DNA of 64,000 nt. Origin: Sphingomonadaceae bacterium. Its GTDB lineage: Bacteria; Chloroflexota; UBA6077. Location: contig JBLNDL010000005.1 of the NCBI GenBank assembly GCA_050261575.1, positions 1 to 64,000 on the forward strand, given 5' to 3'. Below, piece by piece: positions 57,001 to 60,000 of this stretch (positions are counted from its first letter, which is position 1; every line of letters starts with the position of its first letter). A program made the position numbers.

Positions 57001-60000
57001 TGTTCGACGGTATCGCCGCCGCCAACGAGGGGATGCTGTCATCGGCCGACCTGCTCCGGAAAGCGATCGACGTGGCGGACGCGAGCTTCGGCGCCCTGGC
57101 GCACAGAGCCAACGGCGCGGTCAAGACGATCCAGGTGGGTATTGGGACCCTGAACCCCGACAAGATCAACATCCTCCTGCTGGGCAACATCCCAGCGGGG
57201 CAGGCGGGCAAGATCGCCAAGGCTCTTGGCTCCAACGCCAAGGTCAATCTGGTCGGCGCGGTGGGCGGCGAGGCGGCAGGCCTGCCGGTCGCGGGCAACT
57301 ACAACAGCCAGGAGGCGCTCCTGGTGACCACCGCCGTCGACGGCGTTGTCGTCGGCAAGGCATGCGTCTCCCCCGGCTTCCTGGCGCTGGCAGCCAAGCA
57401 GGGCGTGCCGGTGGTGGAGGCCGACAAGTTCGACGCCGCCGGCCTGCTGGATAAGGCCGAGACCCACTACCGCCAGAACGCCGGCCGCAGCATCGCCGCG
57501 AGGTTCGCCCGCGTCGCGGCCACAGTGGGCTTCGCTGCCTCCACCTTCGCCTCCCTCTCCGCCCAGCAATGGGGCGAGCTGGCCAAGTCGGGCATCAAGG
57601 GAGTGGCGATCGTGGGCGGCTGCAACAACGCCATCGAGACCCAGGACGCCGCCATCGTCCGCCAGGCCGATGAGTTTCTGAAGAACGACGTGCTGGTGAT
57701 CGCCAGCGGCTGCGCCGCGGTGGGCCTGGCCAAGGCCGGCTACATGGATCCGGCCAAGGTGGGCTCCCTCGCCGGCAAGGGGCTGCAGGCGTTCCTGGCC
57801 GCCCTGTCCGGCGCCACCGGCACCCAGCTCCCCGCGGTCCTCGAGGCCGGTAGCTGTTGGGAGCTGCCGACGGCTGTGGAGTTGGCCCAACTGTTCCAGA
57901 AGCGACTGAAGTTGCCCCTGGCTGCCGCGATGCCGGAGCTATCCAGGCCCGCCGCGTGGAGTTCGGCTCTCGCCGTCGCCGCGCAGGGTGTCCCCACCTA
58001 CGTGGGGCCGGTGCTCCCCCTCGACGGCGGCCTCCAGACAGTTCAGGCTCTCAACGATATGCTGAAGGCCAGGGGCGGATCCATCGTGGGCCCTGGCCAG
58101 ATCGGCGATCCCGAAGCCTTCGTGAACTCGGTGATAGGTAACGAGTGATGAGTCGTGAGTGGATAGCCACTCATCTCTCGCAACTCATCACTCATTACTG
58201 GTTAAGGAGATAGCCGAGATGCTAACTGACGAAACCAAATGCATCGGCTGCGGCAGATGCATTCCCTTCTGTCCAGTGCAGGCCCGCTCGTTTGGGCGCG
58301 CGGCCACCACAGGGCGGACAGTGATAGTGATAGACAAGGATCGGTGCACCGAGTGCGGCGTGTGCGAGCGCACGGCTCCCTGTCCGGTGGACGCCATCCA
58401 CCAGGACGTGCTGGAGTGGCCCCGCCAGGTTCGAGGGATCCTCTCCAACCCGCTGGTGGAGTTCAAGGGCACCGGCATCCCCGGCCGAGGCACCGAGGAG
58501 ATCAAGACCAACGACATCACCGGTCGGGTGAAGTACGGCAGGGTCGGCGTCGGCATCGAGGTCGGCCGGCCAGGCGTCAGCGCCCGCTGGACCGAGGTCG
58601 AGAAGATCTCCATGGCGCTGGCGAAGCTGGGGGTCGAGTTCTGCGCAGAGAACCCCATCACCCACTTCATGGTGGACAAGAAGACCGGCAAGCTCGATCC
58701 CGCAGTGGTGAACGAGGTCTCCCTCTCCGCCATCGTCGAGTTCGAGATGGCCGAGGATCGACTGCCGGAGCTGTTCCGGGTCCTCCGCGAGGAAGTGGAC
58801 GACAAGATCGACACGGTCTACACCTTCGAGATCGCCGCGCGGCTGAAGCCCGATGGGACCACGACGGTGGTCCAGAAGATCCAGGACGCGGGCTATCAGA
58901 TGCTCACGGTCAGCAAGAACAACCTGGGCCTCGGGCGGCCGCGATACCAGGATGAGGAGGTGCCAGCATGACCCACAGCCTGCATCGCCGCGGCGACGTG
59001 GAGAGCCTCAAAAAGGACTTCCTGGTTCTGGCCTGCACGGCCAAGGGCCACAACGACAAGGTGTTCGCCCCGCTGGGCAGCGAGTTTGCTCGGATCTGCG
59101 CCAAGCACAAGCCGGTCAACGGCGGCGACATGAAGACGGGCAACCTGCTCTACGTGGATGCGGAGACGATCGCACAGAAGGTGTCCAGCAGCACCATCAT
59201 CGAGTTCACCTTCGACAACAAGCAGAACGTCATCGACTGCATCAAGGAGTTGAAGGAGCGGGACCTGGGCATCTCCGTGGTGATCACCGGCATGATCGAC
59301 GAGGTGAACGACATCGTCGAGAAGGCCGGGCTGCCCAAGGTCCACACCCGAGAGTACTCCCTGGGCACCCACGGCAAGACCAAGCTGCTGCCGGAGTGGG
59401 AGGTGCTGGAGTTCACTACCATGTGCGGCCACGCCATGGTAGCCAACGAACTCGTGAAGAAGTCCATCGTGGATGTCAGGAAGGGCCGCGCCTCCGCTCG
59501 AGAAGCCGCGGTGACCATGGGGAAATGCTGCTCCTGCGGCAACTTCAACATCAACCGCGCCGTGGAGCTAATCGAGAAGAACGCCCCTCTCTGGACGGCC
59601 GACTATCCTGTGTACTAATCGGAGTGGGTTGGGGCCCGACATCGGTCCTGAGTACTGAGTCCCACTGCTCAGGACTCAGCACTCAGGGCTCGACACCGAC
59701 CTCTGACCCACGTGGAGGGGATACATGAAACATCTGATAGTGGGCAACGGGCCGGCCGGCATCAGTGCCGCCAGGACCCTCCGGAAGATCGCGCCGGAGG
59801 ACCAGGTGGTGGTGCTGGCGGAGGAGGCCCAGCCCTTCTACTCCAAGGTGCTCACCTCCTACTTCGTCGGCGGCAAGGTTCCCTACGAGAACATGCTCCT
59901 GGCCAACTCGGAGCAGTTCCAGGATCAGGGCATCCAACTGCGGACGGGCAAGCAGGCGGTGAGGGTGGATGCCGCCGCCAAGGAGCTGCTGCTCTCCGAC

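Follow-up and report, generated by a model that had tools for sequence, protein, structure and literature searches.

A family-less iron-sulfur protein pair, F-U, as a candidate carboxylate-converting heterodimer beside CooS-like and FNOR genes in a Chloroflexota genome

In the window (the whole stretch of 64,000 nucleotides that we analysed), two adjacent genes lie among genes for redox proteins: the first, F, encodes a protein with a ferredoxin domain, and the second, U, encodes a protein of no family. They raise the question of whether the pair converts a substrate of its own or serves another enzyme, for example the CooS-like protein encoded upstream. We confirmed both open reading frames between the CooF-like/CooS-like genes and the FNOR gene, all on the forward strand; the gene pair described in the survey's finding is thus real. 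The features of the locus are as follows:

56100..56681, forward strand: CooF-like polyferredoxin of 193 aa, opening the putative operon (Pfam Fer4_11, 2.7e-18)
56685..58148, forward strand: mini-CooS-like protein of 487 aa (Pfam Prismane, 6e-37)
58204..58209, forward strand: AAGGAG ribosome-binding site, 9 nt ahead of the ATG of F (sequence reading)
58219-58971, forward strand: F open reading frame, 250 aa, Fer4-type domain plus family-less domain
58219..58404, forward strand: F residues 1-62, 2x[4Fe-4S] ferredoxin domain (Pfam Fer4 families)
58405..58971, forward strand: F residues 63-250, family-less domain with a predicted ferredoxin-like/ACT-like alpha+beta core
58968..58971, no strand assigned: ATGA overlap of the U start codon and the F stop codon, translational coupling (sequence reading)
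58968-59618, forward strand: U open reading frame, 216 aa, without Pfam or NCBIfam family
59725..60963, forward strand: FNOR, a PadH-like FAD/NAD(P)H oxidoreductase of 412 aa (Pfam Pyr_redox_2, 5e-65; Rubredoxin_C, 3e-8)
61206-61937, reverse strand: DpiA-like response regulator, convergent, context only (Pfam Response_reg and HTH_64)
61942-63876, reverse strand: CitA-like sensor kinase, convergent, context only (Pfam sCache_3_2, PAS, SPOB_a and HATPase_c)

An alignment of 43 F proteins places the start of F at the ATG at 58219, not at the GTG at 58159, and a GAGGAGG-like ribosome-binding site can be read directly upstream of the U start. The synteny of the DpiA-like/CitA-like pair is common only to the window and its nearest relative (L017). 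A 228-nt contig from an RNA library is identical to 58842-59069 and crosses the F/U junction, which is no proof of transcription, and leaves the remaining stretch uncovered; the plasmid collection contained no match.

The genome contains six copies of U and six of F, each F lying directly upstream of its U (sharing with the window copies 36-42% identity for the U paralogues and 43-47% for the F paralogues), which confirms the six paralogous pairs reported before. A premature TAG suspected within the F copy on contig C29 is an ordinary stop codon, and that gene is intact. Relatives of U form 505 clusters at E<=1e-3; the 120 listed are all unnamed or called 'hypothetical protein' and lack Pfam domains, and a cluster look-up of the relatives likewise returned 'hypothetical protein' as the sole name. 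In the ESM Atlas, both U and the C-terminal domain of F matched only unnamed or '4Fe-4S binding protein' clusters, and our literature search found nothing on F or U. The description of an unnamed, domain-less U family, and of a two-subunit iron-sulfur protein of no named family, is therefore supported. The pair is found in Syntrophales, Desulfobulbales, Clostridia, Chloroflexota, Synergistota, and Bathyarchaeia, with six copies in this genome and up to eight in a related one, and well-supported subfamilies span phyla in a quick tree; such multi-copy families are consistent with substrate diversification. The locus counts given below come from 52 loci obtained in a single-protein scan (a sample different from the 295 stretches and 80 loci of the survey), many of which are closely related and are not independent observations.

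Pfam matches to F involve only Fer4-type models, all within residues 1-62 (Fer4 at 1.5e-11; Fer4_21, Fer4_7, and Fer4_10 also exceed their cut-offs), and eight cysteines (C8, C11, C14, C18, C43, C46, C49, and C55) are invariant in the alignment of 43 sequences (A2). VIA-align superposed this part of the predicted model (pLDDT 87.7) on 1dur with Z 7.7 and an rmsd of 1.4 over 54 residues. Residues 1-62 are, by the criteria of the Fer4 clan, a bacterial-type 2x[4Fe-4S] ferredoxin domain. Past residue 62 no Pfam or NCBIfam family was found, and the 250-aa window protein is without the Pfam domains Pyr_redox_2 and Fer4_20, i.e., without a fused GltD-like module. The C-terminal domain has its own invariant motifs in A2 (FSDP, GRGTEExKTN, GRP, SxIxE, and KxNxG), and residues 105-245 of the model align with MupZ and ACT-type chains at Z 5-5.9 in VIA-align.

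The only Pfam match of U is to PrpR_N (PF06506; E 0.013, 15.5 bits against a cut-off of 29.1), and the single NCBIfam match (0.017) is at chance level. We rejected the PrpR_N identity, which scores below the gathering cut-off and is matched by 1 of 100 U members, as well as SHOCT-like matches in 17 of the 100 (best 1e-4), which are short, helical, and under every cut-off. In the predicted model of U (pLDDT 95.3, pTM 0.91), roughly residues 15-120 fold into a ferredoxin-like alpha+beta domain, residues 125-136 are the conserved loop PHTxxxSLGxxG, and the C-terminal part, which carries the invariant C153-G-H155 and C188-x-C190-G-x-x-N194, is helical. Alignment A1 of 100 diverse relatives showed R7, C153, G154, H155, C188, C190, and N194 to be invariant, and the N-terminus to be conserved as M-T/S-H-x-L-H-R-x-G, with histidines at positions 3 and 6. 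The "Cys4" label given to U on account of four invariant cysteines must be revised, since C23 varies among the 100 relatives, leaving three cysteines (C153, C188, and C190) and H155. To judge from the residue pattern and secondary structure, these four residues probably lie close together, and U putatively carries an iron-sulfur or other metal centre; its cofactor might conceivably be a flavin or another organic molecule. The spacing C-x-H...C-x-C recalls the C-x-C...C-x-x-C of BFD-like [2Fe-2S] domains (PF04324), an assignment that we discarded at the sequence level for U 150-200, as no member of the 100 matches at E<=10 and hhalign of A1 against 11 Fer2_BFD segments gave a probability of 0.1% for sequence kinship; no separate fold search was made for this segment.

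Searches for a solved relative bore out the claim that the fold of U has no match: the best Foldseek hit in the PDB has E 0.1, the best of 48,161 chains in VIA-align has Z 4.5 (none reaches Z>=5), and the U profile against all PDB sequences found nothing better than a chance match to XPA over 25 residues (E 0.014). The order of secondary structure elements in U 15-120 and F 105-212 fits the ACT/dimeric alpha+beta-barrel arrangement, with Z values (4.0-4.5 for U, 5.0-5.9 for F) in the range of common arrangements. In the predicted models, U 15-153 and F 106-245 align to the identical ACT/PII/dimeric alpha+beta-barrel (MupZ-like) chains: 6fxd_B (U: Z 4.4, rmsd 4.5, 110 aligned; F: Z 5.9, rmsd 4.2, 106 aligned), 1vk8_A (Z 4.3 and 5.2 for U and F), and 3c1m_A (Z 4.0 and 5.5) in VIA-align. 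Unlike these folds, F-U has a ferredoxin domain and a Cys3His helical part, and it has no sequence relation to any solved chain. Ligand-binding regulatory domains give matches of this kind (Z 4-6) just as typically as enzymes do. Shared ancestry of the F C-terminal and U N-terminal domains is unsupported (hhalign probability 1.8%).

F is present in 49 of the 52 loci, and in the three without it U is cut or partial. The two are even fused in a natural protein of 440 aa (P0268), in which the N-terminal motif of U is internal; a free U N-terminus is therefore not always needed, which weakens a role of the terminal amine. Prediction of the F-U complex gave a score of 0.92 (best of three controls 0.00), a mark attained by 116 of 157 solved complexes and by 2 of 215 mismatched pairs, figures that are approximate since our own alignments were used; contact agreement among the runs was at least 95%, and partner pLDDT at least 90. 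The tight heterodimer proposed in the survey thus passes as a prediction. The predicted interface is formed by residues 11-19, 46-52, 90-101, 116-121, and 226-240 of F and residues 1-8, 122-138, 154-162, and 186-190 of U, coinciding with the invariant motifs of both proteins (A2 and A1). In the complex model, the C-G-H and C-x-C region of U contacts the ferredoxin domain of F (for example, F16/17 with U162), the ACT-like domains pack together, and some 20 invariant residues other than cysteine, many with a charge, gather at the interface; the basic and acidic ones could be conserved for subunit packing rather than for substrate binding. Other fusions join the subunits to electron-transfer modules: U to a CooF-like Fer4_11 domain (P0126), and F to Pyr_redox_2 and Fer4_20, a GltD-like combination, in three loci (L024-L026); among 18 longer proteins with the F C-terminal domain, 16 have the GltD-like architecture (about 705-722 aa).

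Genes for redox partners accompany the pair in many loci: FNOR in 32 of the 52, a CooF-like gene in 26, and a CooS-like gene in 27. The order F-U-FNOR, described in the survey as nearly fixed, does not hold, since FNOR lies 3′ of U in only 7 of these 32 loci (L017-L023) and ahead of F in 25. TctC and/or TctA transporter genes were found in 33 of the 52 loci (in Chloroflexota, Bacillota, Synergistota, and Thermodesulfobacteriota), so the link to organic-acid metabolism, previously drawn from this genome, stands and now extends beyond it. Neighbours of the other copies in this genome include TctCBA (C29), IclR and MFS genes (C25), and Iso_dh (C76); elsewhere, we found a DUF1932/NAD_binding_2 dehydrogenase gene in 21 of the 52 loci, aconitase-family genes in 8, DHDPS-family genes in 5, and also PrpD, ICL/PEP-mutase, MR_MLE, and aminotransferase genes. 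Because these catabolic neighbours vary by locus, no single pathway emerges. Four minimal clusters (L045, L028, L065, and L057) consist of TctCBA and F-U with no other redox gene. The best solved relatives of the cognate TctC have E-values of 1e-28 to 1e-35, and the ligand-defined structures are more distant, too distant for a substrate to be transferred to F-U.

The F-U pairing, the interface position of the conserved residues, and the fusions and neighbourhoods of the genes are all seen by computation. From them we arrive at a reading to which we lean with modest confidence: the F-U heterodimer is the catalytic part of a modular NAD(P)H/ferredoxin-linked oxidoreductase that acts on an imported carboxylate. 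F and U, as an obligate heterodimer, would form the substrate-converting end of a modular iron-sulfur/flavin oxidoreductase. Electrons would pass between NAD(P)(H) and F-U via a flavoprotein (FNOR here, the GltD-like module fused to F elsewhere), with polyferredoxin-type carriers on the path, namely the CooF-like protein and the B-cluster of a degenerate CooS-like protein; they would then move through the two [4Fe-4S] clusters of F to a metal centre in U ligated by C153, H155, C188, and C190. A composite active site may lie at the subunit interface, made of H3, H6, R7, and loop 125-136 of U and the GRGTEExKTN, GRP, and KxNxG motifs of F. The substrate would be a small carboxylate imported by a TctCBA transporter, and the six paralogous pairs would differ in their specificity. 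We infer both which way the electrons flow and that the carboxylate is converted by redox chemistry.

The standard 2x[4Fe-4S] domain of F, the contact of the U Cys3His motif with that domain in the complex model, the fact that every fusion is to an electron-transfer module, and the variety of the catabolic enzymes nearby would also suit a specialised electron carrier or adaptor, a large heterodimeric ferredoxin without a substrate site that connects FNOR/CooF-type modules to separate enzymes. We consider this unlikely: the minimal clusters of TctCBA and F-U (L045 and L065) contain no other redox enzyme, the roughly 20 invariant non-cysteine residues at the interface far exceed the needs of a carrier, and six to eight paralogues per genome would be unusual if they served NAD-dependent dehydrogenases.

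Less probable still is a non-redox reaction, in which F-U would be an iron-sulfur (de)hydratase or lyase for hydroxy- or amino-carboxylates, with a three-cysteine cluster as Lewis acid and the ferredoxin domain keeping that cluster reduced or repaired. Three cysteines with a non-cysteine ligand are the pattern of substrate-binding clusters, as in aconitase or the iron-sulfur serine dehydratases, and the latter are also accompanied by an ACT-like domain; U has three invariant cysteines and a putative fourth, non-cysteine ligand, F-U is predicted to have ACT-like domains, and aconitase-family, PrpD, MR_MLE, and aminotransferase genes are found nearby. However, neither F nor U matches any hydro-lyase family in Pfam or NCBIfam (no model for aconitase, serine dehydratase, or fumarase/tartrate dehydratase at E<=1), such families are absent among the 25 listed of the 67 families matched by the 100 U members at E<=10, and the recurrent fusion or adjacency to NAD(P)H flavoproteins argues for net electron transfer.

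The position of F-U between the CooS-like and FNOR genes, in the window and in L017-L023, suggests another role, as an extra electron-transfer or accessory subunit of a CO-oxidising CooF-CooS-FNOR unit of the kind implied by the annotation, which we regard as very improbable given what the CooS-like protein has lost. Against TIGR01702 it scores 169 bits, below the cut-off of 478 for the catalytic subunit of Ni-CODH; in a whole-genome search with the same model it gave 106+60 bits, and two canonical CODHs encoded elsewhere in the genome gave 715 and 616. In the alignment with CODH-II, the protein keeps the cysteines of the B-cluster and four at positions of the C-cluster, while the other C-cluster and acid-base residues are missing: LGN stands in place of HGH, a gap and A replace the CC of GICCTG, ANSSF falls at the His of GHSGH, and SAL at the Lys of HEK (residues of CODH-II that we take to be cluster ligands or acid-base residues). 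Going by this alignment, the protein lacks the full ligand set and the acid-base His and Lys. It has 9 Cys and 2 His in total, compared with 11 Cys and 1 His that coordinate the three CODH clusters according to the cited part of PMC3328121, which also reports that the mini-CooS of Thermosinus carboxydivorans retains all cluster ligands. Clusters of CooS, CooF, and FNOR have been proposed as CO:NAD(P)+ oxidoreductase units (Inoue et al., 2019, PMC6344411), and the window resembles them in having a CooF-like protein, FNOR, and a Prismane/CODH-family protein in one co-directional cluster; it differs in its 487-aa mini form of CooS without the full C-cluster ligand set and in the extra subunits F and U, which described clusters do not include and on which our literature search found nothing. 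In 19 distant loci, the CooS-like proteins, of the Desulfobacterota type, have no C-cluster ligands at all, only the four B-cluster cysteines and one other cysteine. Because of these 19 loci and the total of only 9 Cys, the neighbour is probably a degenerate scaffold and unlikely to oxidise CO; the survey's view of it as a CO dehydrogenase is doubtful, given the lost motifs and the low TIGR01702 score. Moreover, a CooS-like gene is absent from 25 of the 52 loci and from five of the six pairs in this genome.

We give hardly any credence to U as a metal chaperone or cluster-maturation factor (with an N-terminal His hook, a Cys/His site, and F as its redox partner) serving iron-sulfur or Ni enzymes, because its conserved N-terminus M-T/S-H-x-L-H-R, with His 3 and His 6, although reminiscent of the N-terminal His motifs through which several chaperones bind Ni or Cu, is buried against F in the predicted complex and internal in the fusion P0268, and because the transporter and catabolic gene association and the many paralogues misfit a maturation role, NifU_N adjoining U in one locus (L055) notwithstanding.

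Since the 19 distant CooS-like proteins retain only the B-cluster cysteines and minimal TctCBA/F-U clusters exist, F-U is the only candidate for the catalytic part of the module. A catalytic F-U heterodimer has partial parallels in known systems. PadEFGHI is an NADH-dependent phenylglyoxylate dehydrogenase whose catalytic module is a 2-oxoacid:ferredoxin oxidoreductase. Similar to that enzyme, a PadH-like flavoprotein (FNOR, 4e-91 to NCBIfam NF045765) and a PadI-like polyferredoxin (8e-23 to NF045766) would link the catalytic module to NAD(P), but the scores in the window are under the equivalog cut-offs (306 against 475 bits for PadH, 80.8 against 700 bits for PadI), and the proposed catalytic module, F-U, is without POR or TPP domains in Pfam. 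The best NCBIfam names of the CooF-like protein are AegA, DmsB, YgfT, HydN, and PadI, all below their cut-offs. GltD/NfnB-type modules feed catalytic subunits through iron-sulfur clusters, as in glutamate synthase and dihydropyrimidine dehydrogenase, and Pyr_redox_2 and Fer4_20 stand ahead of F in the fused proteins described above; the F C-terminal domain and U are dissimilar to GltB, PreA, and NfnA, however, no flavin-binding family was detected in them, and the window copy has a separate FNOR instead of a fused module. Ligand sets of three Cys and one His occur in some hydrogenase [4Fe-4S] clusters, in 4-hydroxybutyryl-CoA dehydratase, and in mitoNEET-type [2Fe-2S] proteins. The putative ligands C153, H155, C188, and C190 of U give the same inventory, but their spacing (C-x-H...x32...C-x-C) and the fold match no family found here.

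A further possibility, which we put forward tentatively and hold to be less probable than the catalytic role itself, is that F-U represents a new class of iron-sulfur enzyme, with two ACT-like domains, a Cys3His metal centre of a kind not described before and possibly completed by the His-rich N-terminus of U, and a built-in di-cluster ferredoxin, which performs redox chemistry on imported carboxylates in anaerobes and re-uses a CODH scaffold, minus its catalytic cluster, as a wire. Some proteins counted as CooS or CODH beside FNOR in genome surveys may not oxidise CO, which affects inventories of CO metabolism. The F-U pair comprises about 500 clusters, and for the 120 listed there is no name, no domain model, and no solved relative. 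Should F-U be catalytic, it would stand for a step in the organic-acid metabolism of syntrophic and sediment microbes that has gone unrecognised, possibly with a new type of metal site; and if the reading as a new class is true, an enzyme type and a reaction outside the textbooks would be present in at least five phyla, in up to eight copies per genome.

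Five open reading frames in the window run in the same direction on the forward strand, and the last of them converges with a two-component system on the reverse strand:

56100-56681, + strand: CooF-like gene (polyferredoxin), 193 aa
56685-58148, + strand: CooS-like gene (mini CO-dehydrogenase-type protein), 487 aa
58219-58971, + strand: F (ferredoxin domain plus a second domain without family), 250 aa
58968-59618, + strand: U (no named family), 216 aa
59725-60963, + strand: FNOR (PadH-like FAD/NAD(P)H oxidoreductase), 412 aa
61206-63876, - strand: DpiA-like response regulator and CitA-like sensor kinase (sCache_3_2, PAS, SPOB_a), downstream of FNOR and convergent with it

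Inspection of the sequence revealed an AAGGAG site 9 nt 5′ of the F ATG, and the stop codon of F overlaps the start codon of U as ATGA. No terminator-like site turned up when the + strand was scanned from 55,400 to 61,400, so it is plausible that all five genes form one operon. Directly upstream lies dnaA (54069-55511, an ORF of 480 aa), and the sole sigma-70-like promoter match of the region (55550-55577) falls between dnaA and the CooF-like gene; the same dnaA synteny is found in the nearest relative, locus L017. L017 is also the only locus in which the CitA/DpiA-like system is conserved beside F-U; in known cases, systems of this type sense citrate or C4-dicarboxylates. Elsewhere in the window, a Fer2_BFD [2Fe-2S] domain (52 bits, 43085-43240, - strand) lies within a 478-aa open frame.

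Whole-genome searches bore out six F-U pairs, with six U and six F genes and every F directly upstream of its own U (C5, the contig of the window, C25 with two pairs, C29, C70, and C76); identity to the window copy is 36-42% for the U paralogues and 43-47% for the F paralogues. A TAG within the C29 copy of F is the gene's own stop codon. In Pfam, F matched only Fer4-type models (residues 1-62) and U only PrpR_N (E 0.013, far under the cut-off), and NCBIfam gave nothing further for U. There are 505 relatives of U (90% clusters) at E<=1e-3, and the 120 listed are all unnamed or “hypothetical protein”, without a Pfam domain; when 1.84 billion representatives were searched exhaustively with HMMER, U matched 520 at E<=1e-3, of which 298 reached E<=1e-10. 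Profile comparison gave no sign that F and U, or U and any solved chain, are related in sequence.

Among 100 diverse members, R7, C153, G154, H155, C188, C190, and N194 of U are invariant, and M1, H3, H6, G9, D17, G101, S103, G108, H126, S131, G133, G136, M152, G191, and R197 occur in at least 90%. The survey's finding had counted four invariant cysteines, but C23 varies, which makes U, as judged from conservation, a Cys3His rather than a Cys4 subunit. In 43 F sequences, all eight ferredoxin cysteines are invariant, as are the motifs FSDP, GRGTEExKTN, GRP, SxIxE, and KxNxG of the C-terminal domain.

The model of U (pLDDT 95.3, pTM 0.91) again found no match among solved structures (Foldseek, best E 0.1; VIA-align against 48,161 chains, best Z 4.5, none with Z>=5), although this comparison barely covers the helical C-terminal part with the Cys3His motif, for which we make no claim of a novel fold. 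Residues ~15-120, where the matches fall, form a beta-alpha-beta-beta-alpha-beta domain like those of the ACT/PII/dimeric alpha+beta-barrel folds. In the model of F (pLDDT 87.7) the ferredoxin domain is clear (Z 7.7 to 1dur), and the second domain is of the same general alpha+beta class as that of U (Z 5-5.9), both matching 6fxd_B, 1vk8_A, 3c1m_A, and 3ce8_A. The tight heterodimer proposed earlier was predicted here as well: the F-U complex scored 0.92 and the best of three controls 0.00, a level that 116 of 157 solved complexes reach, as do 2 of 215 mismatched pairs; these counts are only approximate for F-U because custom alignments were used. Prediction runs agreed in at least 95% of contacts, with partner pLDDT of at least 90. 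The predicted interface (F: 11-19 [first cluster motif], 46-52, 90-101 [GRGTEExKTN loop], 116-121 [GRP], 197-213, and 226-240; U: 1-8, 99-110, 122-138, 154-162, and 186-190) coincides with the conserved motifs of both partners, and in it the Cys3His region of U contacts the ferredoxin domain of F.

Natural fusions join the components further. In three loci (L024:4878-7004, also L025 and L026), a 708-aa protein ends in F and begins with a GltD/NfnB-type NAD(P)H module (Pyr_redox_2 and Fer4_20); of the 18 longer proteins returned with the F C-terminal domain, 16 (~705-722 aa) share this architecture, under the names “glutamate synthase beta subunit-like oxidoreductase” or “FAD-dependent oxidoreductase”. 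F and U are fused in P0268, and U is joined to a CooF-like Fer4_11 domain in P0126. A chain that leads from the NAD(P)H flavoprotein via Fe-S carriers and F to U would have three links, and with these fusions each of them exists somewhere in covalent form. In a related genome (G002:C562:6719-7339), U runs on into a longer open frame of 417 aa. The L024-type fusion has U, a class-V aminotransferase, and TctCBA after it. The genes before it encode CoA-transferase III, subunits of an ADP-forming acyl-CoA synthetase, and a carboxyl transferase, a hint that for some family members the substrates may be CoA esters.

We mapped 52 loci from a scan of species genomes by tblastn, with the window's proteins and neighbour proteins as queries.

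Genes found at loci encoding a U relative
F: 49 of 52 (in the other three, U is cut or partial)
FNOR: 32 of 52
TctC: 31 of 52
TctA: 30 of 52
TctC and/or TctA: 33 of 52
CooS-like: 27 of 52
CooF-like: 26 of 52
DUF1932/NAD_binding_2 dehydrogenase: 21 of 52
Aconitase-family: 8 of 52
DHDPS-family: 5 of 52

The order F-U-FNOR, earlier described as nearly fixed, holds in seven of these loci (L017-L023, all CooF-CooS-F-U-FNOR as in the window), whereas in 25 FNOR precedes F-U (TctCBA-CooF-CooS-like-FNOR-F-U, mostly Syntrophales and Desulfobulbales), often with a second F-U pair and the DUF1932/NAD_binding_2 dehydrogenase next. Minimal clusters hold TctCBA and F-U (L045, L028, L065, and L057). Among 127 neighbour ORFs from 16 loci, Pfam identified assorted carboxylate-related genes (2-oxoacid:ferredoxin oxidoreductase, ADP-forming acyl-CoA synthetase, MR_MLE, Ldh_2, PdxA, 2-Hacid_dh, aminotransferases, PrpD, ICL/PEP-mutase, and M20 peptidases) and regulators (GntR, IclR, LysR, and MerR); the other pairs of the window's own genome adjoin TctCBA (C29), IclR and MFS (C25), Iso_dh (C76), and MerR (C70).

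All four other genomes of the host's family encode U (1-8 matches apiece); searches of 16 genomes from other families of the order gave none. A quick tree gave well-supported subfamilies that cross phyla. In tandem F-U-F-U loci (L031-L034, L036, L041, L044, L052, L062, and C25 of the host genome), one pair is of a distinct subfamily (its U starts MTHSLHRSGDIESQK) that the quick tree places, across phyla, with the host's C25a copy. An archaeal U homologue (L055:89-763, a Bathyarchaeia assembly) lies beside NifU_N, PrpD, and aconitase subunit genes, on a contig that ends just upstream of U and so does not cover the position where an F would lie. A Caa3_CtaG cytochrome oxidase assembly gene (C76:3181-4080, L016) sits ~2 kb from an F-U pair, and the host may not be a strict anaerobe; the family is otherwise found in anaerobic lineages.

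The neighbouring gene had been taken for a CO dehydrogenase, a reading under which F-U might be an accessory subunit of a true CODH. The CooS-like protein scores only 169 bits against TIGR01702 (cut-off 478), and two canonical full-length catalytic subunit genes lie on other contigs (C67:53972-55849, 715 bits; C53:6671-8524, 616 bits), which indicates that the host has ordinary CO dehydrogenases besides. Aligned with CODH-II, it retains the N-terminal B-cluster motif and the cysteines at YQC, GCNN, TGC, and GSC, but HGH stands opposite LGN, the CC of GICCTG opposite a gap and Ala, and the GHSGH histidine and HEK lysine are substituted; we take these residues to be pendant-iron ligands and acid-base catalysts. 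With 9 Cys and 2 His altogether, its C-cluster ligand set is incomplete, whereas the mini-CooS of Thermosinus is described in PMC3328121 as retaining 11 Cys and 1 His coordinating three clusters (PMC8776680 assigns mini-CooS to clade G). In 19 distant, Desulfobacterota-type homologues adjoining F-U, only the four B-cluster cysteines and one other are conserved. We therefore read the CooS-like protein as a probable electron-transfer or scaffold subunit, not a CO-oxidising enzyme, which in those 19 loci leaves F-U as the sole remaining candidate for the catalytic part. Genome surveys may tally such CooS-like genes as CO dehydrogenases.

The best-supported reading is that the F-U locus encodes a modular oxidoreductase converting a carboxylate. 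FNOR, or the fused GltD-like module, would trade electrons with NAD(P)(H), the CooF-like and CooS-like Fe-S proteins would form a relay, the two F clusters would hand electrons to a putative Cys3His metal centre in U, and the carboxylate supplied by TctCBA would be converted at a composite site where the two subunits meet. F-U pairing, conserved motifs in the interface, fusions, and neighbourhoods are computed. That U binds a metal, that the chemistry is redox, which way electrons flow, and what class of substrate is used are inferred. More specifically, F-U might reduce an unsaturated di- or tricarboxylate, e.g., aconitate; this is a long shot, suggested solely by neighbouring Tct, aconitase, PrpD, and ICL genes. 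Less likely than the modular oxidoreductase are the alternatives that F-U acts purely as an electron carrier, as a non-redox Fe-S hydro-lyase, as an accessory subunit of a true CODH, or as a metal chaperone. The logic of the proposed arrangement would resemble that of the PadH/PadI system (names from NCBIfam matches), in which a flavoprotein and a polyferredoxin serve a 2-oxoacid oxidoreductase, and that of the GltD module, which serves glutamate synthase or dihydropyrimidine dehydrogenase.

Full-text literature searches returned no description of F or U, though the supplementary tables of PMC6344411 might list either under COG numbers; that paper mentions, as grouped with FNOR-type CODH clusters, a ferredoxin-like protein of COG1143 (“CooX”) and also “functionally unknown proteins”. 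Multi-subunit Fe-S oxidoreductases linked to NAD(P)H are already known as a general kind; the proposed F-U catalytic module has no detectable relative, and there is thus a substantial chance that F-U represents a new enzyme class.
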